Shown here piece by piece: positions 6,382 to 61,677 of a DNA stretch of 64,000 bases. Position 1 is the stretch's first letter. Every line of letters starts with the position of its first letter. Below the pieces are notes generated by a model. That model ran no database searches and was not told the origin of the DNA. It was given only the letters and a program-made list of their open reading frames with translations. The translations under genes were made by a program, and so were the position numbers. The stretch is from Takakia lepidozioides. Its lineage: Eukaryota; Plantae; Bryophyta. The stretch lies in the NCBI GenBank assembly GCA_030704615.1, contig CM060732.1:71362001-71426000 (forward strand), given 5' to 3'.

Positions 6382-20702
<14,321 letters not shown>

Positions 20703-34590: not shown

Positions 34591-34959
34591 GCTCTTGCAA
34601 GTATTATACAGGTCTGTAGATTCGTACAATAGTGTGTATGCGTAAGCTCATTTCTTAGTTCAAGTTCAATGGTTTCGCTGTCCAAGGCTTCAACACCGCA
34701 CTCACTGTAGAGCTTCCCACACGGTGTGGTGTACGCGATCGTTCCTTGGGATCGGCCTCATCATGGGGTCGGGCAAGCCAAAGCGAAAGCGGAATGGCCC
34801 GAAAAGTGATGATCCTGGTGAGCCCGATGGGGGCGACGTGTCACCGAAGCGGCCATTTGAGGAAGCGATCCATGCTTTTGAAAACGAGGCCACTCAAGAA
34901 CGAGAGGAATCTGAGGAGTCGGAGCCCGAGGAATCCCTGGAGCTCCGACAGACCAACAG

Positions 34960-37900
34960 ATGTCTCCCATGCCAGCAGCCTTTTGGGAAGGGTTGTTGGC
35001 GCAGTTTGGCGGAACGTTGAAAGACGTGTTGAAGGCGGCTAATGCCACTTCCACTAAGGCAAAGTTTAAGGTGAAGCCTAAGGAACCCGGCACCTTCGAG
35101 GGCATCCGAAATCGAAAGGCACTCAACACCTGGCTCTTGGAGCTAGAGCAGTACTTCCGCGCGGCCAAGTTGAGTGACGAGGATCGGGTGGAAGTGGCTC
35201 CCACCTACTTGAGGGGCTATGCTCAACAATGGTGGCAGAAACGCCTTCACGACCGAGGTCCAAATCTGGAAACCGTGAACTGGAGTGGGTTCAAGGAACT
35301 TATGAAGAGACAGTTTGTGCCCCTCAACGCGTCCTGGCTCGCCCGGGACAAGATGAGGAATTTGAAGCAAACGGAAGACATTCGGGGATATATTTAGGCT
35401 TTCAATGTGCTGTTGCTCGAAGTCGCAGACATGGCAGAACCAGAAATGGTCTTCAACTTTGTGGCGGGGCTGGCCCCATGGGCTGGAGTAGAAGCCACCT
35501 AACACTAGGCAACTGAGAGGGCTGAATGTTTCTCGGATGTCCCTAGGGGCGAAAGACAAGGCCGTACAGAGCTGAACCACAAAAAGGCCCGGCGGGAGGG
35601 TGACTCCTTCCGACCGGAAAAGAAGTGGGATAGGCCACACGGCGACAATGACACATGGAAATCGAAAAGAGGGCCCTCACACGTCAAGACGGCACCCGGT
35701 GCCCCGAAAAGAAAACCAGGTGCGGCGGCTTATGACGGGCAGAAGGCGACCTTCGATGGAGTGTACTTTAATTGCGGGGAACCCGGACACATGACAAAAA
35801 AGTGCGCAAAACCCCGACAATTGAACATGACTCGGGCAACCACAGAGTTGTCCGAGGATTCCATTAGCTATTTGGTGGAGGCAGTGGTTGCCAAGACTTG
35901 CAAGGTAGGCAACTACTCTTGTGAGTTGTATCAGGAGACTGACGCCCTGCGTAAAGGGAGTCAGTTATTGTTCGTGAGTGGGATAATTTCCGGAACTAAC
36001 GTGTCGCTGTTGGTGGACACAGGAGCGTTGCACTCCTTCATGACACCGGTAACGGCACGGAAGCTGGGACTCCCGACAAGTGATGTGGGGGCTTCTATTG
36101 AGGTGCGTTCTGCTAAAGGAGAACCACAATTGGCGACGAGGTTGACGTTCGATGTTCCTCTTTAGCTCGGGAGTTGGGAGGGACGTGAGAACTTCACCAT
36201 TTGCGAGATCGATGGAGTGGATCTCATTTTGGGGATGACCTTTCTGAGCAAATCAGGAGCGGTCATAGACGATCGCAAGAGAATAGTCACGTTACCGTGT
36301 GGGAATGGTGGCGAAGTTTTACGAGTTTCGGAAATGCCCAACCTAGTGGAAGGGCGAATAAACTTGTTATCAGCAAAGGAGTGGGCCGTGGAGGAGCCAC
36401 ACGAGCCCCAGTTTTTGCTTTACGTAAGAAAAGTGAAGGGAGAAGGCGATGGGGAGCCGAGCCCAGATTGGATCAAGGGGATTTTGGAGAAATATTAGGA
36501 TGTGATGCCGGAGGATTTACCAAGCGGCTTGCCACCGCGAAGAGGAGTTGACCACAAGATTGAGGTGATACCGGGATCGGAGCCGCCTGCCAAGGTGCCC
36601 TACCGGTTGAGCCACAGAGAGTTGGTCGAGCTGAAGACTCAGCTCAAGAATCTAATGTCAAAGGGATACATCCAGCCGAGTAAGTCACCTTACGGAGCCC
36701 CGGTGCTATTCGCAGACAAGAAGGATGGGACCCTGCGGATGTGTGTCGATTACAGGGCTATGAATAAGGTGACTATCAAAAACCGATACCCTTTGCCAAG
36801 GATCGACGACCTCTTCGATCGGTTGGCAGGAGCAAAGTATTTCAGCCGGATCGATTTGCGCTCCGGGTATTATCAAATTCAAGTGGCGGAAGGAGATGAG
36901 GAGAAGACCGCGTGCAAGACAAGGTATGGTTCATATGAGTTCTTGGTGATGTCTTTTGGGCTCACCAACGCACCCGCAACCTTTAGCACTCTAATCAACA
37001 GCCTCTTCCAGGAGTGGTTGGACGACTTTGTGATCGTGTACATCGACGACATCTTGGTGTACTCGAAAACAAAGGAAGAGCACCTGGAGCACCTCAAAAG
37101 GGTGTTCCAAAAATTACGGGAAGGAAAGCTGTATGCCAAAGCTTCAAAGTGCAAATTCGGGGTCACAAAAGTGGAGTTCCTGGGGCATGTGATTACACAG
37201 GATGGGATAAAAATGGATGACAGAAAGGTGAGGGCGATCTTGGACTGGGAGCCTCCGACTTCGGTCCCGGGAGTGCGATCTTTCTTAGGACTCGCCTCCT
37301 ATTACTGAAAGTATGTAAGAAATTTCGCCAAGATCGCGGGGCCGTTGTCAGACCTTCTATGTAAATCCAAGGTATGGGTATGGAACACCTTTTGTGGCCA
37401 AGCTTTTGCCGAGTTGAAGCAGCGGATGGCGGAAGCTCCAGTCCTGAAAATCCCGGAGTTCGACCGCCCATTTGAGATTCATACGGATGCGTCGGACTTC
37501 GCGATTGGAGGTGTACTCATTTACGAAAGTAAGAAACTGAATGAAGTGGAGCGACGGTGGCCAACGCACGAGAAAGAGATGAAGGTGGTGGTGCATTGCC
37601 TTGAGCTTTGGCGCCACTATATTGGTTCCAACCCGGTGAAGGTGTTCACGGACAATGTCACGGTGAAGTATTTTGCCACGCAGCCTAAGTTGTCCCCAAA
37701 ACAACTTAGGTGACAAGACACTTTGGCAGTGTTCGACGTGGATATCCAGTACAAACCGGGACGGGACAATGTGGTGGCCGATGCTTTAAGTAGATAGTTG
37801 CAGCTCATGTTAATGTACAAGGGCGAGACGGCGCTCCAGAAGAAGATCCGGAGGCTTATCGGAAAAATGAGATGGCGAAGTTCGTGATGCGGGACTTGAG

Positions 37901-39282
37901 GATGGGGGTTAAATCGTAGTTCCTCTTGCAAAATGGACTACTCCGGTACAAGCAAAAACGTCTCTACGTGCCGAAGGGAGGGATCAGAGATAGTCTCTTA
38001 AGAGAATGCCATGATGGCCCGCTTGCGGGCCATGGCGGAGCCAAGCGCACCGCAGCACTCTTGAAAAAAGAGTATTTCTGGCCCAAACTAAGGGAGGAGG
38101 CCGAGGAGTATGTCAAGACATGCACCACATGCCAACAAAACCAGAGTGAGTACAAAAAGCAAGCGGGGCTGTTACAACCCTTGCCGATTCCAGAGGGGTC
38201 TTGGAAAAGTGTCTCGATGGATTTCATGACTGATATGCCGCTGTCAAAAGGATTCGATGCAATCATGGTGGTGGTGGATAGGTTCAGTAAAATGGGCCAT
38301 TTCATCCCCACCAAGGACATGGCAACGGCGCAGGAGACAGGGCGACTTTACTTCGCCCTCGTCTTCAAGCATCATGGACTCTCGAAGGATATTGTCTCGG
38401 ACCGCGATCCAAAGTTTACTAGTAAATTTTGGAGGGTACTTTGGAAGAAAGGGGACGAGGCTCAAAATGAGCACCGCCTTCCGACCTACGACGGACGGCC
38501 AAACGGAAAGGGTGAATTTCGTGGTGAAGCAGATCTTGCGGAATTACGTACCGGCAGACCAATCGGACTGGGTGGAGCACTTGGATGCGGCGGAGTTTTG
38601 TTATAATAACACAAAACACTCCGCAACGGGAGTTTCCCCCTTCCTATTGGTCTATGGAAAAGCACCTTTGGTGCCGACAAGTTGGGCCGCCCAGGACGTT
38701 GAGGAACCGGCAGCAGCGGCAGTGCTGGAAGAACATGAGCGTTTGTTGAAGCTCGCAAAGTACAACATTGCCAAAGCTAGGAAACGGTATGAACGGCAGG
38801 CGAATCGGAAGCGGAGGGAGGTTAAGTTTGAGGCAGGCACGGAGGTCTGGTTGAACATCAAGAATTTTCGACTACCTCCGGAAGTAAGTCCGAAGTTCGT
38901 ACCTCCGTATGCGGGACCCTTTCGCATCCGGAAGGTTATGAATGAGGATGTGTATGAATTGGAGCTGCCGGCAAACAGCAAGGTGCATCCAGTATTCCAC
39001 GTCTCCATTTTGAAGCCTTACTTCAAAGATGAAGCGCATCCGAATCGGCATCAAGTGTTGCGTCCGCCACCTGTGCTGTTGGATCATGAAAATGAACCTG
39101 AGTACGAGGTGGAGGCAGTGCTTAAGTCGATGAGGTTCAAGAATCGAGAAACGGAGTATCTCGTGAAATGGAAGGGCTATCATCATGTGGAGGCATCTTG
39201 GATGCGTGCCTCAGAAACGGGAAACGCATCCGAGGCGGTTGCAGTTTTCGAATGGCGACCTCAAAAGCGGAAGAAGCGTTGA
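34960..39282 (+). mobile_element. Decayed Ty3/Gypsy chromovirus: gag-PR-RT-RNaseH-IN-chromodomain
   Basis: Gag; Zn knuckle (C>Y)FNCGEPGHMTKKC; protease LLVDTGA; RT CVDYR/YIDD; RNaseH HTDAS; IN H..H..CTTC and SMDF..SDRD; chromodomain EYEVEAVL...EYLVKWKGY. Purine tract GGGAGAGGAAA at ~39306. Several premature stops and frameshifts. Confidence 0.95.
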
Positions 39283-42200
39283 TGTGGACATCAACCTTGG
39301 ATCGTGGGAGAGGAAATGCATGCTTAGCCTGGCTTAGCTAGCTCAGAAATCCAATTGCAAAAATTTGTATTGTACAAATTTTGTTATAAATGAAATGGTT
39401 TCCAAATGTTGTGCGTCCTATTTTGTTTGGAATGGTGATTGCATGGTATGGTTGGCTAGTTTTAGAAGCATGCTAAGCTTACAAGTGGGAGAGGTAAATG
39501 GATTAATCGTGTGTTGTGTAGTGCCGAAATCGGTTACTCACCCAAGGGCCAAGGAAACTTGCACCTTCGTTGGGCGATCACATGCTAGTGCGCACTTGGC
39601 GCGTGCGCGTACTATAATTGCGGTACCGAGGGGGTTGCCTTGTAGTGTGGGCTAACGTGGAAGCTACGTGCTCCCGTTCACGTACTATAATCGTGTAGCC
39701 TCGGGACGAAGTCGTAGTGCGGCTTCGGCGTGTTCCCGTACCTCAGGCCAGCATTTCCAAGTGGACCCAATTGTAGTGATTGGGGCGCACGGTTGGTTCA
39801 AAGGTTATCTTCCAGTAAAAAAGGGTTCAAGGCAACCTTGCTCAGGTGATGCCAAAAGCGACATCACGACGGGTCGCAAGGAATGTTGTTGCAGTAAGGC
39901 GATTTGATCCTCGGGAGGATCGTTCCTTGCCCTGAAGTGGTCAAGAAGAGTGCACTGGGGAGCTTGAGAGGCTCCACCCTTGGCCGGGACTTGGAGGAAG
40001 TCGGCCGAACTAGCTAGTGGAGCGTAGAGTCAAGTGGGGGTTTGGTTCTTAGCCATGGGACGCCATGGTGCGGAAACAAACTCCTTGATGTGGGACGCCA
40101 CAACTTGGACGTTCGTTTTTACAAAATAGACAAGTCGATGAGGACATCGACTCCCTGTTGGTAGGGGTGTGTGTCGCGGCCCTTTGCCTTGAAGGCAGGG
40201 GGTCGGGACATAAGAGGGGCTGCCCCTTGTGTGGGGCAGTGGCGACTATAGAGGCGGGGGCTGAAGCACCCTTGAGTGCCCAAGGCACTCAAGGAGGCGG
40301 AGGCGCTCACTAGGTGGAGCCCCGCACCCGGTTTGCGGTGGGGGTGGTTCCACGAGGGGTGTGGTAGCTTAGTGGGACTTAGTGGGGGTGGCATAGGACT
40401 CACCATGGGGGCGGAGACCTTGTGGTGGGAGTCGTGGGGAGTCTTGGGACTCATCACGGTCCAATGGGACCGTGGTGGGTGGGCCAAGATACACCGCGAC
40501 TCATCACCGAGAGTCGAGGGTTTTCATGGTGGTTCGCCATAAAATGGCATGGTTGTTTGTGAAACCCCCGCGGACAGTCACAGAAGTATATATAGGGAGT
40601 AGTAACCCCGAGAACGGTGCAAGCCCGTTGGTGTCCAAAAACTAATGAGTAAGCGAGCGAGCCGGAAAGCGACCAAGGAATGGGGAGCTATTCCGGACTG
40701 CCATCCACCAAAGGGAATTTCCTCTAGGCCCAAATTGGTGGAGGGTTTTTGGGAAGAGTAAAGGGGGACTGTTATGTCCCGGTGAGCAGCCGAAGCTCCG
40801 AGTTGGCCCGACGGCCAGGTTGGGAGTTAGGCGCGTGCATCGAAGCCAGTAACTATGACTTGAAGGGGAGCTTACCGAAGTGGGGTGCGTGACACCCAGC
40901 ACAAGCAAATCCATGGAGACAAGAGAGTGTGTGGCCCGGACATGGATATTGCACGGTGGGCTCCTATGCGTTGGGCATCGATTGGGGTGGTGTCTAGCGG
41001 TAATGGGAATCGTGGACTCTCACGTGATTTGAAAGCTGAGGTTGCGCATGATAAGGATGCATACACGGCTCCCATAATCTGTGCACGGGTTTGTGTTGTG
41101 GAGCATTTGTGCAGTTTTAAGAGTGGTTGGTGGTGAGGCTCGATAAGCCTATCAGCTATATCTATGTTGTTATCGAGCTACAAGCTAGTATGTGAGGAGC
41201 GCGTTAAAGGTGTTGCTCGTGAGCTTCATCTTCAGCCGCAAATATGAGAATACCATCATGCAGGTAGTTCCATTGTTGTTGTGACCACTACCTAAGTGCG
41301 ATGAGCTGTTTGCATTTGCTTAGATGTTGACGGGACCAACAGAAGCATAATGTGCAACCTCATATGACGCTCCTAGATGTGAGTTCATGATCAATCTAGT
41401 GGAGATGTGGTAGCAAAAAACAAAAAAAATAAACGAAGAGATGTAGCGGAACTTCAGATCTGCAGATGTCCAGATCTTCAGTGAACCGCAACATAAATAG
41501 ATGAACTTGCTGCGGTTCAACCATGTTGACTAAGATCACGTCTTGAGCGGCCACCACGGCCAGCCAAAATGACAACATATGTTACGGTCTGTTTTCAGTT
41601 GCACATTTCGGTGGTGGTCAGCAGTGCACAAAAATAAGATATAGTCATTGCGGCTGGTGCTTTAAGGCAGACCAGATGTATGGTGCACAAAGGTTGATGA
41701 ATGAGGCCTAAGACAACATCCGGGCCTGAAGTTTAAAGACCCCGAACCTGTGATTATACTTGCGGGACTTACCATTCGTCCTAGCATTGAACGTTGTGGA
41801 GCTGGTCAGCCAACTCACATCAGAGTCACTGGTGGTTACTAGCAATGGGTGGGAAGTCGGTGTGCGACTATAGCCCAGCCACCATGAAGGAGTGGTTGTG
41901 GGCTGGTTGATGTGAGGTTGTCTGGCCGCACATCGCGAGGAAGCAAACAAATGGATGGACAGGGTCAGGCTAGATTTTCTAGCAAGTGCATAATTAAGCT
42001 GCTGTCCAACAAGCGTAGGAGCTGATCATGAAGCAGGCCAAAGGGGCGATGAAATAGACCAGAATGGAGGTCAGTATGAATTCCAACTTATGATTGAAGA
42101 TATTTGGATTTTATGGTGGGAAGAGGAAGACACAGCTTCGCGTACCAAGACAAGAAAGAGTAGTAAGAAGGAAGGCAAGCAAAGAAGGGGGTCTGCATAG

Positions 42201-45788: not shown

Positions 45789-48612
45789 CTATCCAATGCA
45801 ACTCGGACATAACCAATCCCCATCTGGAACCATCTCAAGAGGTGGAGTCAAGCATCCCATATGCCAACCTCTAGAGCATTGATCACACAGCAGCATGGTG
45901 GCTGCCCCTCTAGCAAACCCACACAACATGCACCTCAAACCTGCAAGTACCACTGCCAGGTTTGGGTCAATCCTGCCATCGACATTGGGAATGTGACATG
46001 ACGCGCAATTACGCACATGATCCTTCCAATCATGCCATCCCGACCCTCCAAGATCAGGACGTCTGAGGGCAATACCTCTCGAACCCTCAAAATAACACGT
46101 CATGCAGTCACATCCATGGTCGTTGGAACAGTCTGCTGCAGATAAACATAGTCACCAAGGTGAAATCTCCGAACCCCAGGTCGACTACTCCCACCACGTA
46201 TGGTAGCATACCTCAACGTATCACGATGTTGTGCAATGGCAAGGTTCTCGAAAACCATGGGCATGACTTTCTTGAACAACTCCGCGTAGTGACCACATGC
46301 ACGTGCCCACACGTCCGGATCGTCAAGATTGAGGACTACTACAGCCTCCAAGTGAATAGATGCAAGCAAATCTGGCTCTCAGCCAAAGAGAAGGAAATAA
46401 GGCGAGAACGAGGCAAGTGATATTTGTCTGCTGAACCTGTAGCCCATGGCTAACCAAGATAGCTGAAGGTCCCAATCTCCAAGGTGTTCCTTCTGCAAGC
46501 CATATTTGCGCAAACCCCTCATAACCGTTTGCACAACCCTCTCTGCCAAGCCATCGGCCTCAGGATGATCCCGAGAAGTGATGCGGTGGTCTATCAAGGC
46601 CTTGTCACACAACGCCTAAAACTCCCCCAAGAACTCTCTCCCTTGATCCGTGAGTATCTTAACTGGAGCACCGAATCGGCTAAGTACACGATCCAAGAAT
46701 GCATACGCAGCTCCCTCACTAGCCTTATTAGGCAATGGAACCAACTCGATCCACTTGGAGAAGTGCTCCACCATCACCAACACGTACTTGTTGTGGCGCA
46801 TTGTCAGTGGCAACGGCCCTGCGAAGTCAAAACTCCACCTGTAGCCCAATCCCATGATTGGAAGAGGGTGCAATTGTGGTATAGGGGCGTTGAATGAAGC
46901 ACGCACCCTGTCACACACCATGCACCTAGCCACAAATTGTTGCACCTCTGTGTGCATACCACGCCACCAATACTGCAGCAGACTATGAGTGCGTCGCACC
47001 CCAAAATGCCCCAACTCCTCATGGGCATGCCGCACTAACCGTGCCCGCTGTGTTGGGTGAGGCACAATCCTCACTCGACCATCCTCCCACACTTGGAGCT
47101 GGTGTGTCCCCTCCCATTTGAACCTCTTAATGGCTCGTTGTAGGATCCGATCCCTCTCCTTGGCAGTCACAGTGGCTGTCGTGTCTCCAGTGCGGAGATA
47201 ATCCAACACAGCTGAATCCTCATGTATATCTTTGGCGCCACCTTGCTCATTGCTGGCCTTAGGGTCCTCAGACACTCGGTCTACAGTCATCCCTGTTGTA
47301 GGTCCAACCTGGCCTTCCGCTGCCAAGATACACAAAAATGCATATGCATGCCATCCGGGCACCATCTCCTCGTCCGTCTTACCATGCCACTGAGCTCCAG
47401 TGTCATCCTGCTGGCTCGTGCATGGATTGCGACTCAACCCATTCGCATCCTGATTGACCAAACCCGGTCGATGCACAACCTGAAAGTCATACTCTTGAAG
47501 TATGAGTGCACACCGTGCAAGCTTCCCGTAAGCTTGCCTGACTCCATCAGCCTCTTGAGTGGCTGGTGATCCGTGACAAGGGTGAAGAGATTGCCGTATA
47601 GATAGCACCTGAAGTGTGTCAACGCCCACACTGTAGCTAAGCACTCTCCCTCATATGAGCTGTACTTAGCCTCTGAAGCATTGTTCGAGCGGCTAGCATA
47701 AGCCACTACGAACTCTCTTCCCTCATCATCCACCTATGTGAGCACCGCTCCAAGCCCCAGCATGCTCCAATTTGTATGCAGCTGAAAATGACGCCCCCTG
47801 ATAGGTCGTCTCAAGATGGGTGTCGAGGTCAACCTCACCTTGAGCTCTTGAAAAACTCGTTCTTGCTCATCTTCCCACTGCCACTCCTGGTCCACCTTGG
47901 TCAATTTGGTTAGAGCCTTTGCAATGGCACTAAATCCCTTGACAAACCGTCTATAATAGTTTGCCAACCCCATGAAAGCTTGAACTCGGCTCACATCCGT
48001 GGGACGTGGAATCTGTGCAAAGGCCTCTACCTTAGTCTGTTGTATCCTCAATCCTTCAGGATATATCATATGACCCAGATACTCAATCTGGTTGTGGAAA
48101 AACTTGCACTTCCCCGGATGTAACTTCAATCCGTGCGCCCTCAAGCGCTCAAATACCACCTGAAGGTGTCTCTCATGCTCCTCCACCGTAGCACTAAAGA
48201 TGATGATGTCATCTATGTAGCACCGAGCAAACTCCACCCCTGCTAGAATCATGTTCATGACTCTCTGAAACTCTATAGGAGCATTCTTAAGCCCAAATGG
48301 TAAGAACCGCCACTGGTATAGGCAATCCTTCCCGTGCTCATTGATCCCCCAGAATGTCGTCTTCTGCTTATTTGCCTCTTTGATCGGCAACTGGTGATAT
48401 CCGGATCGTAAATCCAAAGTGCTAAAGACCTTGGCATGCCAATGGCATCAAAGATCTCCTCTGGTATTGGCATGGCATACCTATCGGACTTGGTCTGACG
48501 ATTTACAGGCCGGTAATCACCGCACATACGTCTCTCCATCCAATTGCCATAGACATCCTTCTTGGCTGGCATCACTGTGGCTGAAGCATACTCTCCACCA
48601 GATAGCTCAACC
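45789..48612 (-). mobile_element. DNMT-Gypsy piece A: RT-RNaseH-integrase-PHD (pseudogenised)
   Basis: RMCGDYR, DLRSGYHQ, YIDD; RNaseH EGECLA/TDHQPL; IN H..H..CMVC, DFAGP, TDQG, DGLAER; terminal PHD finger. Confidence 0.93.
45798..45932 (-). other. PHD finger at the integrase C-terminus
   Basis: CMLC-x11-CDQC-x4-H-x2-C-x14-CPSC (C4HC3) with the typical LTPPL..VP.G.W.C signature. Confidence 0.92.
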
Positions 48613-48861
48613 CATGCAGAGGATGTGCCACCTCCAGCAGAGCAGGATGACATGCATGGTACGGCGGAGTTGCCTGCCATGGTTGCTCACACTCTATTAC
48701 GGGGTACGAGCAAGGATTTGCAGCAGGCTGCTGATGGACGGGTACAACAAGCCTGGGTAGAGGCCTTCGTACCGTCAAGAGAAGAGGAGAGTGCGGTGAT
48801 TGCACCAGGACCACCTCAGTTGTCGCCATTGGACACCACACCTCTTGTGTGACAGTGCCCG

Positions 48862-49830
48862 GATGAAGGCATATGCCTTCAAGACTTGTTTGGCGGGATC
48901 AGCACTGGATTGGCTGCAGTACTGCAGGCAGGTGTACGAGTTCGACGTTACCTGTATGTGGAGAGGGATGAGACTGCACGACGCGTCTCACTGTGCCATA
49001 TTGCTCAGTTGGTACAACAGTACCCTGATTTGTTGCCAGTGTCTGCAGTTCGTGGATACCAACAAGCCTTGCCAGCAAACCTTTCGTTGATGGGGGCGCA
49101 GGATTTGGAGCGGGTTAGCTCCATTGATCTGGTAGTGGCAGTTTGGCCCTGCCAAGGGCATTCATCAGCCGGGCATGACAATGGATTGCGAGACTCGAGG
49201 ACGGGTCTGTTTTGGAGATGGTGCGGATTTTGCGCGCCACTTGCAGCTTCATCAAGCTGTATCTCCAGCATACATATTGGAGAATGTGCCACTGATGGGT
49301 GATTCTCGGGCCAGGGTGATGGCCAGTGTGCATCAAGTCCGGTCGTGACTTGGGTCAGCAGTGTTGCTGGATGCAGCTGCAGTGGGGTCATGGGCTCATC
49401 GTCCACGGCTATGGTGGACTAACTTGATGCCACCCGCACTGCTCAAGCGTGCATTTGATGGGGCTGCGGCCAGCACACCTCACAGTGGATAGCATTTTGG
49501 ACACATGGAGACAGTCTCAACGTGTGAGATACGATGACCGTTTGCCTTTGGCAGTGGTCAACAGGGTGGGTCAACCACGAGCAACATTACCTACACTGCT
49601 CAGCTTCCCAGGATCCCATGCTTTTAGGGATGGTGGACCTGGCCTCTTGTGGGATAGCCAGTTGCAACAATTAGTGGAGCCCAATGCTGACGAGCGCGAG
49701 CGGGCGATGGGTTTACCACAGGTACCACGGTGGTGTCATATCTTTCTGAGGCATCACGTCGTCAGATGTTGGGGCAAGCAATGGATCTCAATTGCTTGAC
49801 CTCGATTATCAGCTTGGCTATGGCTGAGCA
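48862..49830 (+). pseudogene. DNMT3-like C5 cytosine DNA methyltransferase domain inside the Gypsy polyprotein
   Basis: Motif I ICLQDLFGGISTGL (48871); motif II RYLYVE; motif IV IDLVVAVWPCQGHS (PC at 49147-49152); motif VI ILENV (E at 49280); motif VIII LLDAAAVGSWAHRPRLWWTNL (~49400); motif IX ERERAMGF; motif X SRRQMLGQAMD (~49770). Correct order across frameshifts and stops. Confidence 0.92.
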
Positions 49831-50245
49831 GCGCAGAGTATGGAGTACACTTCCCTTCATGGTCTCCCTGCCTACCGAGACGGTACAGGCAGCGAGTGGG
49901 GGCGAGCAGGTGAGGACCACGAGGTGCAGGCCGCATCCATGGCACATGTGGGAGGTGCTCGAGGTTCAGAAGGAGTTGGCAGCCAAGGCGGCGGTGATGG
50001 ATCAGCTTGGGGATTTTTCTCGGATTGAGGAGGTCCTCAAGGATGGGATGATGGGGCAGGATGAGACATTGTCACTGACAAAGGAGGCAGTGGTCACTGC
50101 TCAAGAGGTTGCAGCATAGCAACCACGGGACGCGTCTTCTACCTCTAAGCCTGCTGGACTCAAGGTTGCAGTCACGGAGGACAACTGGGAGCCTGATGTT
50201 GGACCTATAGTCACTGGAGGAGAGAGACGACGTATACGGCGGTTC

Positions 50246-52845
50246 TTGAGGGCTTACAGGAACTGCTTTGCCTTCAGTTTGAAGAACTTGGGAGCACTGA
50301 AGGGTCAAGAGATTCGCATTGAATTGGCTACTGACACGCCAATCTTTCGGAGACCCTATAGATACAGTGACATGGAGAGGTCCTTGATTCAGATGAGAAC
50401 TCAGAACCTTTGGGAGGCTGGTTTGGTGGAGCTATCTGGGGGAGAGTATGCTTCAACCACAGTGATGTCAGCCAAGAAAGATGTCTTTGGCAATTGGACG
50501 GAGGGACGTATGTGCGGTGATTACCGGCCTGTAAATCGTCAGACCAAGTCCGATAGGTATGCCATGCCAACACCAGAGGAGATCTTTGATGCCATTGGCA
50601 TGCCAAGGTCTTTAGCACGTTGGATTTACGATCCGGATATCACCAGTTGCTGATCAAGGAGGCGGATAAGCAAAAGACGACATTCTGGGGGATCAATGAG
50701 CACGGGAAGGATTGCCTATACCAGTGGCGGTTCTTACCATTTGGGCTTAAGAACGCTCCGGCAGAGTTTCAGAGAGTCATGGACAGGATTCTAGTAGGGG
50801 TGGAGTTTGCTCGGTGCTACATAGATGACATCATCATCTTTAGTGCTACGGTGGAAGAGCATGAGAGACACCTTCAGGGGGTATTTGAGCGCTTGAGGGC
50901 GCACGGATTGAAGTTACATCCGGGAAAGTGCAAGTTTTCCACAACCAGATTGAGTATCTGGGTCACATGATATATCCTGGAGGATTGGGGGTACAGCAGA
51001 CTAAGGTAGAGTCTATTGCACAGAATCCACGCCCCACGGATGTGAGCCAAGTTCGAGCTTTCATGGGGTTAGCAAACTATTATAGACGGTTTGTTAAGGG
51101 ATTTAGTGCCATTGCAAAGGCTCTAACCAAGCTGACCAAGGTGGACCAGGAGTGGCAGTGGGAAAATGAGCAAGAACAAGCTTTTCAAGAGCTCAAGGCG
51201 AGGTTGACCTCGGCGCCCATCTTGAGACGACCTATCAGGGGGCGTCATTTTTAGTTTGCATACAGATTGGAGCATGCTGGGGCTTGGAGCGGTGCTCACA
51301 CAGGTGGATGATGAGGGAAGAGAGTTCGTAGTGGCTTATGCTAGCCACTCGAACAACGTTGCAGAGTCTAAGTATAGCTCATATGAGGGAGAATGCTTAG
51401 CTGCAATGTGGGCCGTGGCACACTTCAGGTGCTATCTATACGGCAATTTCTTCACCCTTGTCACGGATCACCAACCACTCAAGTGGTTGATGGAGTCAGA
51501 CAAGCTTACGGGGAAGCTTGCACGGTAGGCACTCATCCTTCAAGAGTATGACTTTCAGGTGGTGCATCGACCGGGTTTGGTCAATCGCAATGCAGATGGA
51601 TTGAGTCGCAATCCATGCACGAGCCAGCAGGATGACACTGGAGCTCGGTGGCATGGTGAGACGGACGAGGAGATGGTGCCCGGATGGCATGCATCTGCAT
51701 TTCTGTGTATCTTGGTAGCGGAAGGCCAGGTTGGACCTGCAACAGGGATGACTGTAGATCAAGTGTCTGAGGACCTTGAGGCCAGTAATGAGCAAGGTGG
51801 CGCCAAAGATATACATGAGGATTCAGTTGTGCTGGACTACCTCCGCACTGGAGACACTGCAGCCACTGTGACTGCCAAGGAGAGGGATCGGATCATACAA
51901 CGAGCCATGAGGTTCAAGTGGGAGGGGACACACCAGCTCCGAGTGTGGGAGGATGGTCGAGTGAGGATTGTGCCTCACCCAATACAGCGGGCACGGTTAG
52001 TGCGGCATGCCCATGAGGAGTTGGGGCATTTTGGGGTGCGATGCACTCATAGTCTACTGCAGGGGCAGTATTGGTGGCGTGGTATGCACACAGAGGTGCA
52101 ACAATTTGTGGCTAGGTGCATGGTGTGTGACAGGGTGCGTGCTTCATTCAACGCCCCTACTCCACAATTGTACCCTCTTCCGATCATGGGATTGGGCTAC
52201 AGGTGGAGTCTTGACTTCGCAGGGCCGTTGCCACTGACCATGCGTCACAACAAGTACGTGTTGGTGATGGTGGAGCACTTCTCCAAGTGGATTGAATTGG
52301 TTCCATTGCCTGATAAGGCTAGTGAGGGAGCTGCGTATGCATTCTTGGATTATGTGCTCAGCCGATTCGGTGCTCCAGCTGAGGTACTCACGGACCAAGG
52401 GAGAAAGTTCTTGGGGGAGTTTCAGGCTTTGTGTGACAAGGCCTTGATAGACCACCGCACCACTTCTCGGGATCATCCTGAGGCCGATGGCTTGGCAGAG
52501 AGAGTTGTTCAGACAGTAAAGAGGGGTTTGCGCAAGTATGGCTTGTAGAAGGGACACTTAGGATATTGGGACCTTCAGTTACCCTGGTTAGCCATGGGCT
52601 ACAGGTTCAGCAAGCAAGCATCACTTGCCTCCTTCTCACCATACTTTCTTCTCTTTGGCCGAGAGCCGGATTTGCCTACATCCATTCGCAGAGAAGTTGC
52701 TATAGTTCTTAACCTTGACGATCCGGACGTGTGGGCACGTGCATGTGAGCAGCGTGCAGAGTTGTTCAAGAAAGTCATGCCCATGGCTTTCGAGAACCTT
52801 GCCATTGCACAACATCGTGATACGTTGAGGTATGCTACCATACTC
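50246..52845 (+). mobile_element. DNMT-Gypsy piece B continued: RT-RNaseH-integrase, truncated before the PHD
   Basis: RRPYR, RMCGDYR, YIDD (~50818), HTDWS, TDHQPL, integrase zinc-binding and DDE core. Near-identical inverted copy of piece A. Confidence 0.95.
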
Positions 52846-53810
52846 AGTGACAAAAGGCATTAAATCAATCTATTGTATCTGAGTTCAGCCGCTCATGTTG
52901 CCAGACTTTGGATTCGAATTTACATTATACATGGATCCATGATATGATGATTTGCCCAGCCCTGTCGTACGTGAACTCACAATTGCTTCCATACTGTTAC
53001 AGTATCCATTATACACCATGATGGTCTTCGATCAGTGGCTGATTGGAATTCCAATGGCATATGTTATCACTACAAGGAGTAAAACTAATCTGCTACCATG
53101 GATGTGCGCCCTGAACCAGCAAATGACCAATGCGCGGCCACTTTGGCATCCAAATGTGTTCATTGTTGACGATGCAAATGCTGAGATAAACGCCATTAGG
53201 TCTGGGTCTACTTTAAAATGGAATGTCAAATAACATGCACAAGCAGTTGTGGAATAATTGAACATGAACTGTTATGGATCATCCATGATTTGTGTGGTCT
53301 ATACTTCATGTAACCTTTTTTTCAATATGTGCATGTATTGGTTCATGTTGCTGACTATATTAATCAGGTCTATTTGGGGATGCATGTGCCATCTTTTTGT
53401 GCTTATGGCATGTCCGAAGAGCCTGGTTGAAAATGCGGTGTCCAAGATAAAAGACCCTGCCAAACGCGTCGACGTTTTACATGACTTAGGGAAATTATGT
53501 ATGATTCCAGGGGGTTTTTGGTGATGCTGCCGTTGCATGGACTGCGTATAAAGATCATTGGCCTCTGGGAAAAGTATCCCACCTTAGAAGAATTTATGCA
53601 TTACCTAGAGACATATTGGCTACCAAAAGCAGACATGTGGATCATGGGTTCTCAAAAAATACCACATGCATCTCAAGACACAAACGCAACAAATGAGGCA
53701 TATCACGGCAATATGAAAGCCCAACTTTAGAGCACAAAGAGCGTCCTCACCAACCGCCGAGTTGATTGGCTAATCTCGGAGCTTGTTGGGGATGTTCTTA
53801 CTCATTGTGG
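52846..53810 (+). mobile_element. Mutator (MULE) transposase fragment
   Basis: YPLYTMMVFD..GIPMAY, FIVDDANAEINAIR, LCLWHVRRAW (CxxH) after a GT-AG intron (~53200-53367), and DTNATNEAYH (catalytic E). Confidence 0.8.
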
Positions 53811-54140
53811 AAAAGTGTTGAGCACCTCTGCATGAGTACAATGGCACTTTCTGTGTGGTAAAGAGAACAACTTATGGATGTGCCGTTTCATTTTGCAGGC
53901 ATGGTATGAAGTCGTGTTTCTGGACCATGCCCGATTCGGATGTTTCCGTGGCAATTCATACGAATCCTATTATGAAGATATGAAAATGATCTTTCAATGG
54001 ATATGTTGATGTTGCAACTGTTTTTTTCTGAAAAGTTGCAGGTTGTCATCTATGTTGTCGTGCGTATACGTATCGCTACACACTACATTGCTGTCCAAAC
54101 CACACCACACATATATGCACAATGAAGTAGTCTACCACAA

Positions 54141-54575
54141 TGATATGAAAACTAAACTCACATTGTCTGATGACATATAAACACGAAACACAACACAATC
54201 ACTCGTTAATATAAGAGTCGAGCCAGGGGCACCCCAAGCTATGGGGACTCCACCCCACAACATCCTACTCTCCCTCCATAAGTACACTCAGATGCTAAGC
54301 AGCAAGGAAGCTCGGTCGTGAAAACTCACCTCGAGAGAGATGAGCCGCACGAACTCGTGAAGATAAGATGGTTCAGGTGTCAAGCTAAACTTGACACTTG
54401 ACTTAACACTTGAACTAATTCCAAGTATTAAATACAAATAACTAGATTTATTCTAGTTAGTTTCACACTGTGTTTATTTAACTTGACAGCTGTCGTGCGC
54501 ATACGTATCGCTACACAACTACATCGCTGTCCAAACCACACCACACATATATGCACAATGAAGTAGTCTGCCACA
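54141..54575 (-). repeat. Probable 3' LTR of the DNMT-Gypsy, preceded by a polypurine tract
   Basis: Minus strand: AGGGGGG-CGAT-TGTGGCAGAC...CATATCA (TG..CA, ~435 bp). Its first ~86 bp are repeated at 54056-54140. Confidence 0.6.
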
Positions 54576-54663
54576 ATCGCCCCCCTAGCTGGTGGTTAGG
54601 TCCCTCTAACTCCAGATAGCTACAAGATGTAATAGCCACAGCCGCACTAAGTCCTCTATCACT

Positions 54664-57600
54664 CACTACAACAGATGAGCGTTTTTATGACTGCACATAT
54701 GACTATTTTTTCAGTCCTATATGCGTTCATGACTATATCACTCTGTAGTGAAAAAAGCCCTGTCATAGCGACTAGTCTTTAGGACTGCGTTTTGCAAGTC
54801 ATAGCCGTGACTGCGTGCGTGGTACCTGGAGTCATGCTGTAGAGAGGATGTAGTCACAACTATATGATTTATATATGACTAACTATATGACTACATGTCT
54901 ACAAAGTATAACTCCATTGGAGAGGCGTTAGAGAGACATATGTAGCACTCCGGATGTACACGTGTCCACATAGACAACATATATATGACCCACACGTGGG
55001 GAAGAATATCGTATCATATAATGCCACGTTGCCATGATGTAGTCATGAGTATATAACTTCATGACTAAAGAGGTTTTTTAATAATATTTTAATTTAATAA
55101 ATTAAATCATACATAATATTTAGATTATTAATTGATTTAAATTCTCATTAGGTATCTAGGAAAATAGAATGGAATCCATTGTTGTCTTTTATTATTATTT
55201 TTATTTTTGTTAACAAAGAGGGATAGTGGGGACAGTGGCCTCTAGAACTTTATAGGTAATGGACATAAAATGTCCTTGGATACAAAGAGGAAAAATAACC
55301 TCTGGATAGAGTGCCATAGAGGCTGACATTGTCAGGTGCCTGTCATGGCAAATACCCACTAGCATGTTTTGGACGAAAATTCGACACTCTCGGTTTTAAT
55401 GAAACAGGTTCGGGCCTATTGGCGGGGCTCAGTCAATTATGCACGCCTAGGCTATGGAGAGCCTGACCCGAGACCTGCAATGGGGCAGCCATACTTCCTG
55501 CACCAACGAGAGTTGTGGCGTGGTTTGGGCAGTGCTAGATTAGCACGATGAATGCACCAAAGAGGGAGCATTGTGGAAGCAGCCGCTTCAAGTGTCATCT
55601 CGGCTTCAGTGCAGATTACCCTGGTTGGGATGAAGAGCGCCGTAAGGGCAGCCACTCTATACTGATCCATTGAGTACAGATCCGGAATGGGAGTTGCTAG
55701 TATTTATGGAATCAGTAGCCGGTTGGTAGATTTCTGCTTGGACGATTGAACTTGGATATTGGCTGACAGACAGTCTACGGCAAGCTGATGCGAATGGCAT
55801 AACATGAGATGAAGCATTGATCATTTCAAACTGTCAATCTGCCAGGCTTTTTACATTAATGGACACACTGTCTACCTGCTACCGAGCTTCAGCGTGCCAC
55901 TGTAAATATTCATTGTAATTCCCCAAGACCCGCCCATGTGTGGAGAACTCGAGACGGCGTGGCTGTTCAGATGGAAAATCGGGAACCTGCAGGGAACAGA
56001 GGGCACAAGTATGGATATCACTCCTCCGACAGATCAACCCTGGATATGGAAAAGAGGTTTTTTGAAATTAATTTTGCGTCTGATCTTGGTTGGGCGTTGG
56101 GCTAGAGTTCCTGAAATCAACAGGTAGTCTTGGCCCTTCAGTAATATACGATTTCGTGAGCAGCACGGTGGCCCGACCTGAGTTGATGCCTCCAGTTCGT
56201 GTGGCTTTGGTTTTTGATAGTTATTGATCCCACAAAAACCGTTAGTTAACGGGAAAAAAAAACAAATCAAATAGCCCTATTGTTAATTAAATGGACAAAT
56301 AATATGTTTTTGGGATTAGATAAACTTTGGTTGGTCATATCTTTGTCAAAAGAGCTCCGTTTGACACAGTTTTTAGGGGGATAGTTGCAGAAAGGGGAAA
56401 TCTACCTACCTAGACAAAAAAATCTATAGAATTTTTCTAATATAAATTAGATCCTCCCCACATCTATTTGAGGTCTATTAAAGAAGCTGATTCAACTCAC
56501 TGAGCTTCCTAATTGTAACACACATGTTACTCTTTGACATTAGTGTATGGCTAGAGAGGAAATGGAGAGTGTCGGGATGAGGGCATGTTGGGGTTAGGAA
56601 TTGCTTTAGTCTCTCCTCCCCATAGCTTTCTACCTTCTCGGTAGGCCAAAACCTTTCCATAGATGGAGGCAAGAGTCAGTCCAGGTTTTTGGGCTGGGGT
56701 ATTCTGCAAGAGCAGCACTGCGGAGGGATTTTGGTATGGGGGTGTTGATGTTTTGATTCTTGTGTTTGGATCCCTCCCACACCTGCATGCTTGACTGTGC
56801 GTCATGTTGGTTTTGTGTGGGCGCTTGCTTTTATAGGGGTTAGACCGGATTTGATCACTAGTCAATTCTAGAGTATGCTGTCAGTGGTGAGGCTGGAGTG
56901 ATGACCAGCAAGACCACCAGTGTTTCTTCTATGGTGAGGCTGGGTTGATGACCAGCCAACCATATGAGTTTTTGCGGTGGATGCAGGTGCAGGATCCCTT
57001 AGCCACTGGGATATGACCCTTAAACTGCAATAGGTGCCTACCCGTGTCACTATTAGAATTAGTATTAGAGCCTTATAGTGTCATGTGGGGGAGGTGTGGG
57101 TTGTGAGTATCATCACGGAGTTACCCAATGGTTTTGAGGGGAGTACGGCTACAGACAGTAGCAGTGAGAGTGGGTTCACAAGACGAGGTGTTCGGTTCAG
57201 ACCACCTTCACCTCCACCCTCAACTAGTGCAGAGTCTGACACAGACTCAGAGGCTTCATCAACAGGTGTGCAGTTTCCTTTGTCATTGTTGTGGGACGAC
57301 ATGGAGGAGATCCAAGGGGCCTCGTAGGTACCACTACAACATATCGCGGTAGTTATGATTGCCAAACCATGGTAGTCATGGTTTTCATGACTTTGACCAT
57401 GACTGCACCATGTTTTTATATGAAATTGACCTCCCGCAGTTGTTCATACGTCTGTAGTCATATGAACGACTATTTAAATAGTCGTCTGTATGACTACATG
57501 GCTCCGGAATGGACGGAAGGCTGGTCAACGGCAATTGACCAGATTTAGCTCACCATTCATAGTCATTTCCATGACTACAGTGTACATAGATGAGGTTACA

Positions 57601-58179
57601 TAGTCATGATGACTACTGGGGATTTTGTAATTTGGTGTGTATAATACAATTAAAACACCATATGATCATATGAATGACTAATGGGTGTATTGGTTAATAG
57701 GTAGTGAACTATAACTCTTATAATAAAGAGGTTGCAGGTTCAAACTCCTCTAAGTACAATCAAATGGATAAGATGGCCATAGGGTTAGTAGGTGAAGTAG
57801 GGATAGCACGTGGTGCCATAGATGGACTGCTACGTGGTTTTTTCATTATTATAAAATGCATTATGCCACGTGGCACAATGCGGTGCGACGCAACGTTTGA
57901 CATATGTTTTTATTTTTTAAGTTTTTTTAATTTAATTTAATTTTTTAAATCAATTGCGCCTCACCACGTGGCACGGCAGCGGCGGCTGCTGTATGGTATA
58001 TATGACTGCAGAGAGAGATATCACTTGGTTCATATGACTGTAGTCATCCAGACCGTACCATCCTGTACTCATTGTATTGACTTGGTTTGCACGACTTACA
58101 GTCATAGAAGTCATATATACCGTTTATGACTACAGAATAGTCATATATACAGTCATAAATACCGGGATCTGTTATAGTG
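54664..58179. mobile_element. Non-autonomous CACTA-type sequence bounded by CACTA termini
   Basis: Left CACTACAACAGATGAGCGTTTTTATGACT; right (reverse complement) CACTATAACAGATCCCGGTATTTATGACT. Dense ATGACT/AGTCAT subterminal repeats at 54664-55070 and 57360-58160. Flanking 3-mers (ACT/TAC) do not match. Confidence 0.75.
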
Positions 58180-61100
58180 TACTCTGGAGCTGTGGGCACA
58201 ATCGAGCTGGATGACTTTATCCAGGAGTTCGACAGTTGGTGTGATTTGCAGCAAATACGCAATCCACAGCTGTTCACCCCATTCATGGCGTGGAAGGGAC
58301 TGTTCCAACATTTGGAAGGCCCGCCTATGGACGATTACCACGAGGTCAGGCGAGGATATGAAGCAAAGATTGAGGAGTGGAGGATGTATTGGTCATCTGA
58401 CTACGTCTCCATTACTCGAGGCACGACGCGACCGGTAGCTGCATTAGCACCAATATCTCACACTGCCAGCACTAGTAGTGGAACAAGTAGTGCCGGTACT
58501 TTTGCAGGTGATATCAGTTCTAAAGGTGCTACCACTCCTCCTGCCATGACTACAACACATGTGCCTAGATTCAACCCGGTGATGGAGTTCTTCTAGGAGT
58601 TGCGGAGGAACTACCAAGGCGTATGGACAGAGAAGTTGCGAAGTTTGCAAGACTTCCAACGCAAGTCCAGTGAGAGCTTGCGAGAGGCCTATACTCGTAT
58701 GAGGCGTTTGATAAGTGTGATCCAAGGGGTCACTGAAGCTCAGGCAATCCAACTCTGGTATGGAATTTTGGACAAGGAACTCAGGAGAAGGGTGCGGGAT
58801 GCAACCCTGTTACAAGCGGCCCAACCCACCTTAGCAAATGTGTTTCTGCTGGCTGAGCGGATTGAGCTCAACATGGTGGAGGAGCGTGTAATGACCATTG
58901 GGTTTGGCAAAGACATGCCACGAGGTGTGTCTGCCAACCAACAAACGCAGCACACTGTACCGCAGCGTGGTCATGGGGGCAAGGTTGCCCAACCCAAATT
59001 CCATGGAGCTTACAGGGGACCTCAGGTGCAGAGGCAAGTAGCTTCTCTTGCAGGCCAACAACAACTAGGGGTGGTGTGTTGCTGTTGAGGAGGAACGGGA
59101 GGTGGACCCTCAGGTCTTGGAGCTGATATCACCTGAGTTATGGCCATGGTAGCAAGCCTTTACTCTAGCTGCTGAAGCCGGTTGGCCATGCCTTGGTCAA
59201 CGCCCTGACCTCCACGTCCTTGGCCATACTGTGCTTGGCCTCGTCCTGCACTCTTTGAGGTGCTTCACCTCGCCCCCGGCAACCATTGTTCCCTTGGAAC
59301 TGGCCTCGTCGCAACTCAGGGTGCAAGTCATAACACTAGGCCTCTCCATGCCCATACTTGCCACAATGCCCACACTGCAACTGTGCAGGTTGTGCTTGTG
59401 CCGACCCTTTGCCGCTCTCTGGGCAATCCTTCTTGACATGGGGTCCTCCACTCATCCTGACAGAGGAGACATGGGAGGCATGGGATTTATGTGTGGGGCA
59501 GCACTAGGGTAGAACACCCTATGACCGTTCATCTAAAGATGACGGAAGATCTAACGGTGAATTTTTGTCATTTTTACCCCGGATAAATTGATAAGATGCC
59601 CCACATCTGGGGCATCCCAACACATTTGGAAGTGCATGATTTCATGAAATCCACACAAAGTTATGGGGTTTCAAAGTTGAACCAATCCGAATGCTTGTGT
59701 GAAGTTTGAGCCTTACAACCACTCATATTTCTTGGGGGTTCTATCAAACAACTGTTTGCCAAGTGGCAAAAATGAGCAGTCTTGGGCCAGCAATGGTCGC
59801 TCATGCAGGCCTGACCCAAGCAATTATAAGGTGAACGGTCATAGGAACTATAACGGTCATAGGGTGTTTTATCCTACCACTACTGCAGGTGGAATCTGCT
59901 GCAGCCGTCACTCGAGGAGCAGCACGAGTTCCTGAGCCACGAGGTGCAGAGGTGGAGTTGGATCCACAGCGTGGGGAGGCAAGCTGTTAGGCTAGGATGC
60001 CTCAATCATTCATCTTGGCGGAGACAGTGTCGATGACATCCATGGCACCTAGTTCTCGCCCGACGGATACCGAAGCAGAGGCCGTTATTGTACCATTGGG
60101 GAGAGCTACACTCCAGCACTGATACCTGCTGCCAAGGCTAGTGTAGCCAGTGTATTGATAGGGGCGGCCACCTCTGTGTGTCAGGCCCTACTGTTCTCAG
60201 CAACTATAATTGCGATGCCGGGGGTAAGACCAGCTGTAGTGTTCAGACTAGCAGCAACACTCTGTGAGAGTGAGGAGGTCACTTCATCTTCAGCGGAGTT
60301 AGTGGAAGGTGTAGTGGCAGAGGGATCCTTGGATTTGAGGGTCAAGACTGCCACGGCTGCGCCATGGCAACCTGCAGCTGCCAGGTTGACAGAGCTGCCA
60401 GCTAGGCCAACCTTTGAGCGCGCCATGGTGACACTTGAAGTTGTCTTGTTAGACAACCAGGATGACATTTTCTCTTTGAGTGGACTGGCAAGCAAGAGGT
60501 ACTGGCCACTACGGGTCTTTGTTGGACTCGGGAGCTCAGCCATTGATGTTGGGCAGAGCTGCTATTGCAGATTTGGGCCAGCAGACATCTCTTTGCTGGG
60601 GGCGCATGATTTGGAGCGGGTTGGCCCTATTCACTTGGTAGTGGCAAGTTGGCCCTGCCAAGGGCATTCATCAACCGGGCATGACAATGGGTTATAAGAC
60701 TCAAGGTCACGCCTGTTTTGGGAGATGTTGAGGGTCCTGTGCTATTTACAGCTTCAGCAGACAGACTCTCGGTATAGATCTTGGAGAATGTGCCATTGAT
60801 GGGTGATTCTTGGGCCAAGGTGATGACCAGTGTGCATCAAGTGCGGTCTTGGATTAGGTCAGCAGTGTTGATGGATGCAGCTGCAGTGGGGTCATGGGCT
60901 CATCGCCCATGATAGCCAGTTGCAGCAGTTAGTGGAGCCCAATGTTGACGAGCGCGAGCGAGCGATGGGTTTTACCACTGGTACCACGGTGGTGTCATCT
61001 CTTTCTGAGGCATCACATCGTCAGGTGTTGGGGCAAGCAATGGATTTCAATTGCTTGACCTTGATTATCAGCTTGGCTATGGTTGAACAGCGCAGAGTAC

Positions 61101-61677
61101 GGAATACACTTCCCTTGATGGTCTCTCTACCTACCGAGACGGTACATGCAGCGAGTGGGGGCGGACATGTGAGGACCACAAGGTGCAGGCCGCATCCATG
61201 GCACACGTGGGAGGTGCTCGAGGTTCAGAAGGAGTTGGCAGCCAAGGCGGCGGTGATGGATCAGCTTGGGGATTTTCTCGAGTTGAGGAGGTCCTTAAGG
61301 ATGAGATGATGGGGCAGGATGAGGCATTGTCACTGACAGAGCAGGCAGTGGTCACTACTCAAGAGGTTGTAGCATAGCAACCACGGGATGCGTCTTCTAC
61401 TTCTAAGCCTGCTGGACTCAATGTTGCAGTCACGGAGGACAACTGGGAGCATGATGTTGGACCCATAGTCACTGGAGGAGAGAGACAACGTATACGGCGG
61501 TTCTTGAGGGCTTACAAGAACTGTTTTGCCTTCAGTTTGAAGAACTTGGGAGCACTGAAGGGTCAAGAGATTCGCATTGAATTGGCCACTGACACGCCAA
61601 TCTTTCGGAGACCCTATAGATACAGTGACATGGAGAGGTCCTTGATTCAGATGAGGACTCAGGACCTCTGGGAGGCC
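58180..61677 (+). mobile_element. DNMT-Gypsy piece C: gag-protease(part)-DNMT(part)-RT start, with internal deletions, an inversion and a MITE
   Basis: Gag 58180-59081; DSGAQ ~60523; second DNMT copy VVASWPCQGHS (~60650), ILENVP (~60780), ERERAMGF and LGQAMD; RT start to LWEA at 61677. Confidence 0.9.
59507..59874. mobile_element. 368-bp MITE with TA target-site duplication
   Basis: TIRs GGGTAGAACACCCTATGACCGTT / GGATAAAACACCCTATGACCGTT. The empty site CACTACCACT is visible in copy D (~62760-62770, minus strand). Confidence 0.85.

Follow-up and report, generated by a model that had tools for sequence, protein, structure and literature searches.

Does a land-plant retrotransposon family encode its own cytosine methyltransferase, or does such a domain merely lie beside one? 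The question is raised by a stretch of 64,000 nucleotides of the moss Takakia lepidozioides (contig CM060732.1; hereafter the window, with positions counted from its first letter), for which an original prediction, made from the letters alone, described a cytosine-5 DNA methyltransferase (DNMT) directly upstream of the reverse transcriptase (RT) of a Ty3/Gypsy element. We consider it very probable that the window holds two dead and rearranged copies of a bryophyte Ty3/Gypsy family whose first open reading frame (ORF1) ends in a DNMT3-like cytosine-5 methyltransferase, and that intact relatives would likely make a Gag-protease-methyltransferase precursor and methylate their own DNA.

Two methyltransferase copies and an inversion

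The methyltransferase is encoded at 48862-49830 of the window (core about 48862-49836), in a piece that we call copy B. The longest open piece, 48853-49302 on the forward strand, matched the Pfam profile PF00145 with 26.3 bits (E 6e-6) against a curated cut-off of 22, and the cores of motifs I (LFGG), IV (PCQ), VI (ENV), VIII (RPR), IX and X were legible in their normal order when read from the sequence, spread over four frame segments, so that the predicted set of ordered motifs was recovered. By tblastn, 48601-50047 corresponds to residues 789-1268 of the Marchantia protein P0006, in frames 1, 2, 3 and 2. Copy B is interrupted by in-frame stops at 48850-48852 and 49346-49348 and by frame changes near 49215-49235, 49459-49467 and 49709-49721. 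Copies of the family in the sequencing runs of the source organism showed differing forms at every one of these break sites: nearly all other copies read otherwise at the internal stop, a sizeable share read otherwise at the frame changes, and a 5,009-nt contig of run X6 did so at all of them.

A second, partly deleted copy of the domain had been predicted between a protease and an RT, and both self-blastn and tblastn of its flanks located it there, in a piece that we call C. Self-blastn aligned 60577-60909 with 49071-49405 (82.7% identity, the middle of the DNMT domain) and 60911-61676 with 49653-50418 (94%, the DNMT end and the start of RT), a patchwork that points to recombination or gene conversion among copies of the family. 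The DNMT remnant of piece C is flanked by a protease remnant (60146-60556) and by the RT N-terminus (61378-61676), and it is devoid of motifs I-III and of a counterpart of 49406-49652, which is part of the target-recognition region.

One 13-kb inversion (48613-61676) explains this arrangement: it split two tandem elements, one of them before and the other after the DNMT domain. The pieces and junctions are as follows.

45789-48612, reverse strand: piece A, with RT, RNase H, integrase and a PHD finger (about 45798-45932), the 3' part of piece C's element (matches to RVT_1, RT_RNaseH_2, Integrase_H2C2, rve and PHD)
48612-48613, no strand: left inversion junction (A/B), where the homology between A and B ends at 48612, matching 50425
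48613-50119, forward strand: copy B, 3' end of ORF1, with linker, DNMT3-like domain, tail and terminal TAG (PF00145; tblastn with P0006)
50120-52843, forward strand: copy B, second frame (ORF2), with RT, RNase H and integrase, several frame changes, truncated before the PHD finger (Integrase_H2C2, rve; tblastn with P0021 and P0031)
58180-61676, forward strand: piece C, with Gag, an inverted zinc-knuckle segment, protease remnant, DNMT remnant, tail, TAG and RT N-terminus (tblastn with P0006, P0014 and P0021; self-blastn)
60563-61216, forward strand: DNMT remnant of piece C, with motifs IV-VIII and IX-X (P0006 residues 943-1057 and 1136-1243; matches to copy B)
61676-61677, no strand: right inversion junction (C/D), where the homology between C and B ends at 61676, matching 50418
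61677-64000, reverse strand: piece D, with Gag, zinc knuckles, protease and linker, the 5' part of copy B's element, running off the window end (P0006 residues 52-789)

The protein matches meet at the junctions, as residue 789 of P0006 is both the end of piece D and the start of copy B, and residue 773 of P0021 both the end of piece C and the start of piece A (tblastn). The inverted RT-RNase H-integrase arms (46198-48612 and 50425-52843) are 92.4% identical, and the Gag-protease arms are inverted too. Re-inverting 48613-61676 yields two collinear minus-strand elements, D+B and C+A, with a divergence of about 8-15% and a gap of about 5.3 kb between them; because the inversion can be read through in this way, both DNMT copies are seen to lie between the protease and the RT of their own element. 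The P0006 match of piece D runs in one frame (E 0.0) with just two in-frame stops, and the piece also has weak matches to Retrotrans_gag and to an aspartyl protease. The PHD finger of piece A (E 3.2e-11) is kept in one of the two window elements. Short contigs of other copies in runs X1, X5 and X6 pass straight from a D-type end into copy B (48611 onward), and in the 5,009-nt contig of run X6 the DNMT leads collinearly into RT.

Two other accounts of the inverted arms were rejected, a fold-back assembly artefact on the grounds that the arms differ by 7.6%, and a DIRS-like structure on the grounds that the arms are coding RT-RNase H-integrase and Gag-protease sequence and that one inversion explains both junctions. 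The window is without any N. Within piece C, a zinc-knuckle segment of about 360 bp (59091-59451) runs opposite to the remainder; 62818-63200 of piece D matches this segment in the same window orientation, and its P0006 match lies on the minus strand. Copy B ends at 52843 and is followed by a weak MULE transposase fragment (52943-53233) and by a 334-bp repeat (54155-54488), of which an inverted occurrence lies at 34251-34590.

Frame order and the stop between methyltransferase and reverse transcriptase

With the inversion undone, both window elements read Gag-CCHC-protease-DNMT, an in-frame TAG, and then RT-RNase H-integrase. A first homologue search returned 47 homologues, the best of them 73% identical, and the named ones came from Marchantia polymorpha, Calypogeia fissa and Sphagnum. 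Proteins of Marchantia, Calypogeia and Sphagnum share this element design, as do 121 stretches of peat-moss metagenome (the relatives given by a metagenome scan, of which 80 loci were kept), and entries from Sphagnum jensenii and S. troendelagicum are in the protein cluster of the peat-moss relatives. In the peat-moss locus L038, which is near-intact, zinc knuckle, DNMT, stop and RT-RNase H-integrase follow one another in one frame, with a PF00145 match of 49 bits (E 7.6e-13) at L038:3195-4508. The claim that the domain belongs to the element is upheld by this shared order in Marchantia, Calypogeia, Sphagnum, L038 and both window elements, and the domain is carried by relatives.

The element type was likewise called correctly. 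The Ty3/Gypsy order of Gag, protease, RT, RNase H and integrase is present in D+B, C+A and L038; pieces of the window matched RVT_1, RNase H, Integrase_H2C2, rve and a C-terminal PHD finger; and the peat-moss relative L056 has plain TG..CA long terminal repeats (LTRs) of about 330 bp, placed 8.5 kb apart. A match of 33-44 nt near the ends of the window copies proved to be a short, partly palindromic repeat motif and not an LTR. The predicted order from Gag, protease and DNMT through RT, RNase H and integrase to the PHD finger stood, but not as a single polyprotein, since two frames are separated by a conserved stop; in the same way the DNMT is indeed upstream of RT, but not directly so, with about 95 codons and the in-frame TAG between them. 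The stop and the sequence that follows it are at these positions.

50117-50119 (copy B) and 61375-61377 (piece C), forward strand: conserved in-frame TAG between DNMT and RT, followed by CAA CCA, in the same place and context in both
50117-50230 and 61375-61490 of the window, and 4509-4630 of L038: regions of the stem after the stop, located by RNA folding

Across the window and the 80 fetched loci, TAG or TAA followed by CAA C stood at the border between DNMT and RT in 52 of 58 tblastn rows (TAG in 37, TAA in 15); another stop or context was seen in 4 of the 58, and in 2 there was no stop within 60 codons. Marchantia models of the P0006 kind terminate no more than about a dozen codons from the border stop, and P0021 and P0031 run from DNMT to RVT_1 and RNase H, joined by skipping the stop region. 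The CAR-YYA rule describes the context of leaky UAG codons in plant viruses, and the CAA CCA after the window stop fits it, so that read-through at this site is predicted. From 15 nt past the stop, a stem of 12 pairs between a pyrimidine run and a purine run about 70 nt downstream was kept in all nine sequences folded, and this stem may be a read-through signal.

These comparisons bear on whether the DNMT could have come to lie there by chance, as a host gene fragment beside a retrotransposon, or could be a chimera produced by mis-assembly. Inverted arms and deletions mark the window as heavily rearranged, and some Marchantia gene models are plainly chimeric (P0021, for instance, skips the stop region); yet at least four bryophyte sources and the 121 metagenome stretches show this order in this frame, the border stop is conserved, arms that are 7.6% apart do not fit a fold-back artefact, and the 5,009-nt contig of run X6, which is independent, has DNMT and RT in collinear order. 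We regard a chance neighbour or artefact as scarcely credible.

Class of the methyltransferase and its conservation

A family profile built from seven DNMT domains was searched against all PDB sequences and ranked DNMT3A first (1.8e-13), followed by DNMT3B (4e-11) and DNMT3C (1e-10), with tobacco DRM (7e-8), Dnmt2 (about 1e-4) and M.HhaI (1.5e-3) lower down; no DNMT1 or chromomethylase chain was among the matches up to E 1. Three matched stretches were collinear with DNMT3A, showing that the motif order is not permuted, unlike that of DRM, which aligned through its C-terminal half alone. An insert after motif II had been predicted at about 25 residues; it is present, lying before motif IV, and measures about 20 residues against human DNMT3A (profile positions 149-172 versus chain residues 57-62). 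A single piece of 149 residues reached an E of only about 0.7 against PDB sequences, and a protein atlas search returned generic C5-methylase clusters only.

An AlphaFold model of the relative P0002, built with 39 sequences, reached a pLDDT of 84.7 and a pTM of 0.87; with 7 sequences the model had been of low quality (pLDDT 40) and was set aside. For the P0002 model, all 33 Foldseek matches listed (ranks 1-50) were DNMT3A, DNMT3B or DNMT3C (E 2e-18). VIA-align, which does not lean on Foldseek, gave the highest Z to DNMT3A (27.0 over 269 residues, root-mean-square deviation 2.5) and DNMT3B (26.2), followed by M.MpeI (23.9), M.HhaI (20.9), DNMT5 (17.4), DNMT1 (16.2), ZMET2 (16.1), MET1 (14.8) and DRM2 (9.5 over 133 residues). 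DNMT3A/B is thus the closest match of the domain in both sequence profile and predicted fold, and the profile, Foldseek and VIA-align rankings agree with the prediction of a DNMT3-like, non-permuted enzyme.

Within ORF1, conservation is highest in the DNMT core. Between P0006 and L038 this core is 67% identical, compared with 60% for RT-RNase H, 54% for the protease, 50% for Gag and 33% for the linker, and the ranking was the same against P0050, P0003 and P0005. The ratio of non-synonymous to synonymous substitution rates (dN/dS) of the domain, one of the checks that had been proposed, was 0.19-0.22 between two peat-moss lineages, and copy B differed from the peat-moss lineages by a non-synonymous proportion (pN) of 0.20-0.24 and a synonymous proportion (pS) of 0.75-0.79, the latter saturated. 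These substitution patterns show that the DNMT domain has been under purifying selection between lineages.

The motif cores were kept in most of the proteins covering each of them: motif I in 57/60, IV (PC) in 47/52, VI (ENV) in 43/48, VIII in 37/46, IX in 31/37 and X in 28/32. All six were both covered and kept in 19 of 61 family proteins, and in each of the 11 proteins of the 40-50%-identical group. A general loss of PC and ENV, which had been named as a finding that would speak against the prediction, was therefore not seen in the family proteins. The same counts argue against a non-catalytic module, a methyltransferase in looks only that would serve nucleic-acid binding or structure: ENV is altered in two of the three metagenomic relatives P0059-P0061, in which the DNMT lies between RNase H and integrase, but the bryophyte clade and its sister group keep PC, ENV and RxR (motif VIII) at the frequencies just given, and the predicted fold matches active DNMT3A over the 269 aligned residues. 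We judge a non-catalytic role improbable.

The family, a proposed mechanism and known systems

A profile search of 1.84 billion representatives returned 4,795 proteins at E<=1e-3 and 1,139 at E<=1e-10, and 314 clusters at E<=1e-30. When 22 long representatives were scanned, 18 showed the order RT-RNase H-DNMT-integrase, 15 of these 18 with a PHD finger after the integrase; the DNMT stood before RT in 2 of the 22 and was seen alone in another 2. Relatives of the order RT-RNase H-DNMT-integrase-PHD can hold extra modules, a Tudor domain after the PHD finger in P0235 and a G-patch between DNMT and integrase in P0275 and P0285.

In a DNMT tree that holds family members only, the bryophyte sequences formed a clade of 29 rows (support 100/99), with copy B at its unresolved base and P0204 as its nearest sequence (72%). 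The tree is discordant with host relationships, in that the main Sphagnum group pairs with the Marchantia group to the exclusion of Calypogeia, and a second, deep lineage (L038) is present in peat-moss DNA; the discordance may reflect either coexisting old lineages or movement of the element between hosts. In the source organism itself, 16,826 contigs of run X1 aligned to 2.9 kb at >=95% identity, 6,488 of them at >=99%, and the family is high-copy and partly young there. Open Gag-protease-DNMT frames are annotated in Marchantia polymorpha.

We propose that the border stop would be leaky, so that RT-RNase H-integrase-PHD would be made by read-through and be rare, and Gag-protease-DNMT would be abundant, the methyltransferase being produced at the Gag level. 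The Gag-borne precursor would enter the virus-like particle, inside which the enzyme may be released by the protease, and the enzyme would then methylate new cDNA or fresh insertions; the PHD finger of the integrase would steer integration by reading histone tails. Since the enzyme lies in the Gag frame before a probably leaky stop and the integrase carries a PHD finger, particle-associated self-methylation is a testable idea.

The PHD finger also lends itself to a different role, in which the enzyme would work in trans on host chromatin and not on the element's own cDNA, for instance by marking the surroundings of insertions or disturbing host silencing, together with the PHD finger. The element would then combine a chromatin reader (the PHD finger, E 3.2e-11) with a writer of DNA methylation, the reader recurs after the integrase in 15 of the 18 distant RT-RNase H-DNMT-integrase relatives, and the accessible text of de Mendoza 2018 (PMC5890265) leaves the role open. 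The Gag-protease frame, by contrast, predicts packaging with the particle, and we hold action in trans to be possible but unlikely. The fuller form of the self-methylation proposal goes further: a young, high-copy land-plant lineage with open ORF1s in Marchantia would make its own DNMT3 at the Gag level and pre-methylate its cDNA ahead of integration, and would belong to a very large superfamily of PHD-integrase Gypsy elements (at least 314 clusters) whose methyltransferase has switched between two positions in the polyprotein. As a whole this form appears rather doubtful; if it is true, exchange may have occurred, in streptophytes, between the DNMT3/DRM genes of transposable elements and those of their hosts.

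Several observations weigh against the reading of a retrotransposon family that methylates its own DNA. Both window copies of the element are dead, as had been predicted, copy B through its two in-frame stops and three frame changes and copy C through deletion, and no LTR pair was found for them when it was looked for. The inverted segment may be an assembly mis-orientation, and no bridging contig was listed for the one inversion junction covered in the sequencing runs. After the border stop, most peat-moss copies have CAA CCC and not CAA CCA, and compensatory changes in the stem were absent from the nine sequences. None of 49 peat-moss DNMT stretches, full-length ones picked from the 80 loci, was free of stops, and within one recent subfamily dN/dS was 0.39-1.02 (median 0.59 over 105 pairs from 15 indel-free copies), as is expected because the copies are decaying. 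Finally, the placement within the DNMT3 clade rests on the ranking of profile and fold.

Elsewhere in the window, the 3' part of an apparently intact PLS-class pentatricopeptide repeat (PPR) gene lies at 1-1647 on the forward strand, with E, E+ and DYW deaminase domains (DYW E 6.9e-43); the DYW domain of this PPR gene indicates a land plant with organelle RNA editing, hence probably no liverwort of the Marchantia type, which confirms the predicted kind of genome. The best homologues of the gene, from Ginkgo-type, Diphasiastrum, Ceratodon, Sphagnum and other sources, are at most 59% identical to it. Two RT fragments of other retroelements and a protein-kinase exon account for 4128-4694 (forward strand), 9363-9839 (reverse) and 11723-12124 (reverse).

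The DNMT retrotransposons described so far sit in algae that are hard to manipulate, and the open frames in Marchantia polymorpha bring the question of DNMT function to a plant in which genetics and methylome analysis are routine. The family also calls for caution in annotation, in that several bryophyte gene models named 'DNA (cytosine-5)-methyltransferase' or 'CCHC-type domain' are retrotransposon frames.

The closest described system is KnitGypsy-Dnmt3 of Klebsormidium nitens, whose DNMT, according to the peer-review file of PMC5890265, shares one ORF with RT and RNase H; in that work its repeats are described as arranged as in DIRS elements, and the Ka/Ks of its domain as <0.2. The accessible text of the same work (de Mendoza 2018, PMC5890265) shows de novo CG methylation by the transposable-element enzymes of Symbiodinium; the idea of self-methylation comes from that work, which states that the role of retrotransposon DNMTs "remains unclear". 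Its species table, as far as accessible, includes Physcomitrella and Selaginella and not Marchantia or Sphagnum (PMC5890265). In their accessible parts, Sarre et al. 2025 (PMC12344493) and bioRxiv 10.64898/2026.05.21.726589 speak of 'streptophytes' and cite the 2018 paper, and one supplementary table of Sarre et al. 2025 is without Marchantia. No report of such an element in a land plant was found in full-text literature searches or in papers on Marchantia and moss methylation, with subscription journals and figures beyond reach.

Among the relatives recovered here, the metagenomic RT-RNase H-DNMT-integrase-PHD proteins P0059-P0061 have a homologous DNMT (33-39% identity, E 1e-55 to 1e-72), an integrase 46-47% identical to that of the window (32% in P0061, which is more divergent) and a PHD finger 42-48% identical; their DNMT follows RNase H, whereas that of the window family precedes RT. 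Chromoviruses are Gypsy elements with a chromodomain on the integrase, and the window family resembles them in having a chromatin reader at the integrase C-terminus, although the reader is a PHD finger and not a chromodomain. The window also contains a chromovirus-type Gypsy element, at about 34900-39300 on the forward strand, with an RT 33-42% identical to that of the DNMT family.

SymbioDIRS-Dnmt3 and SymbioLINE-Dnmt of Symbiodinium are also retrotransposon-borne cytosine methyltransferases, but belong to the DIRS or LINE class according to the accessible text of PMC5890265, and the EpiLTRs of Euglena and Cymbomonas, as described in the part of bioRxiv 10.64898/2026.05.21.726589 that is available, have a DNMT that is the sister of the DNMT4 clade and carry an adenine methyltransferase and a chromodomain in addition. 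Host DNMT3 enzymes (human DNMT3A/B, and MpDNMT3b as described in the accessible portion of bioRxiv 10.1101/2021.02.12.428880) are the best profile and fold match and have collinear motifs, and the element domain differs from them in being about 22-25% identical, in its insert of about 20 residues, in lying on a chain without PWWP or ADD and in belonging to a retrotransposon precursor. KnitGypsy-Dnmt3 can be compared by its published description only, as far as that is accessible, the homology searches having returned no K. nitens sequence. On that description the two share a non-permuted DNMT3-like domain that lies inside the coding region of a streptophyte Gypsy element and is under purifying selection (about 0.2 here); the window DNMT, however, ends a Gag-protease frame upstream of RT and a conserved stop, whereas that of KnitGypsy-Dnmt3 lies in the Pol ORF, and in contrast to the DIRS-like repeats of the latter the LTRs of the peat-moss relative are plain and about 330 bp long. 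The window family, moreover, has land-plant hosts. The kind of element is thus known, and its layout and host range are new.

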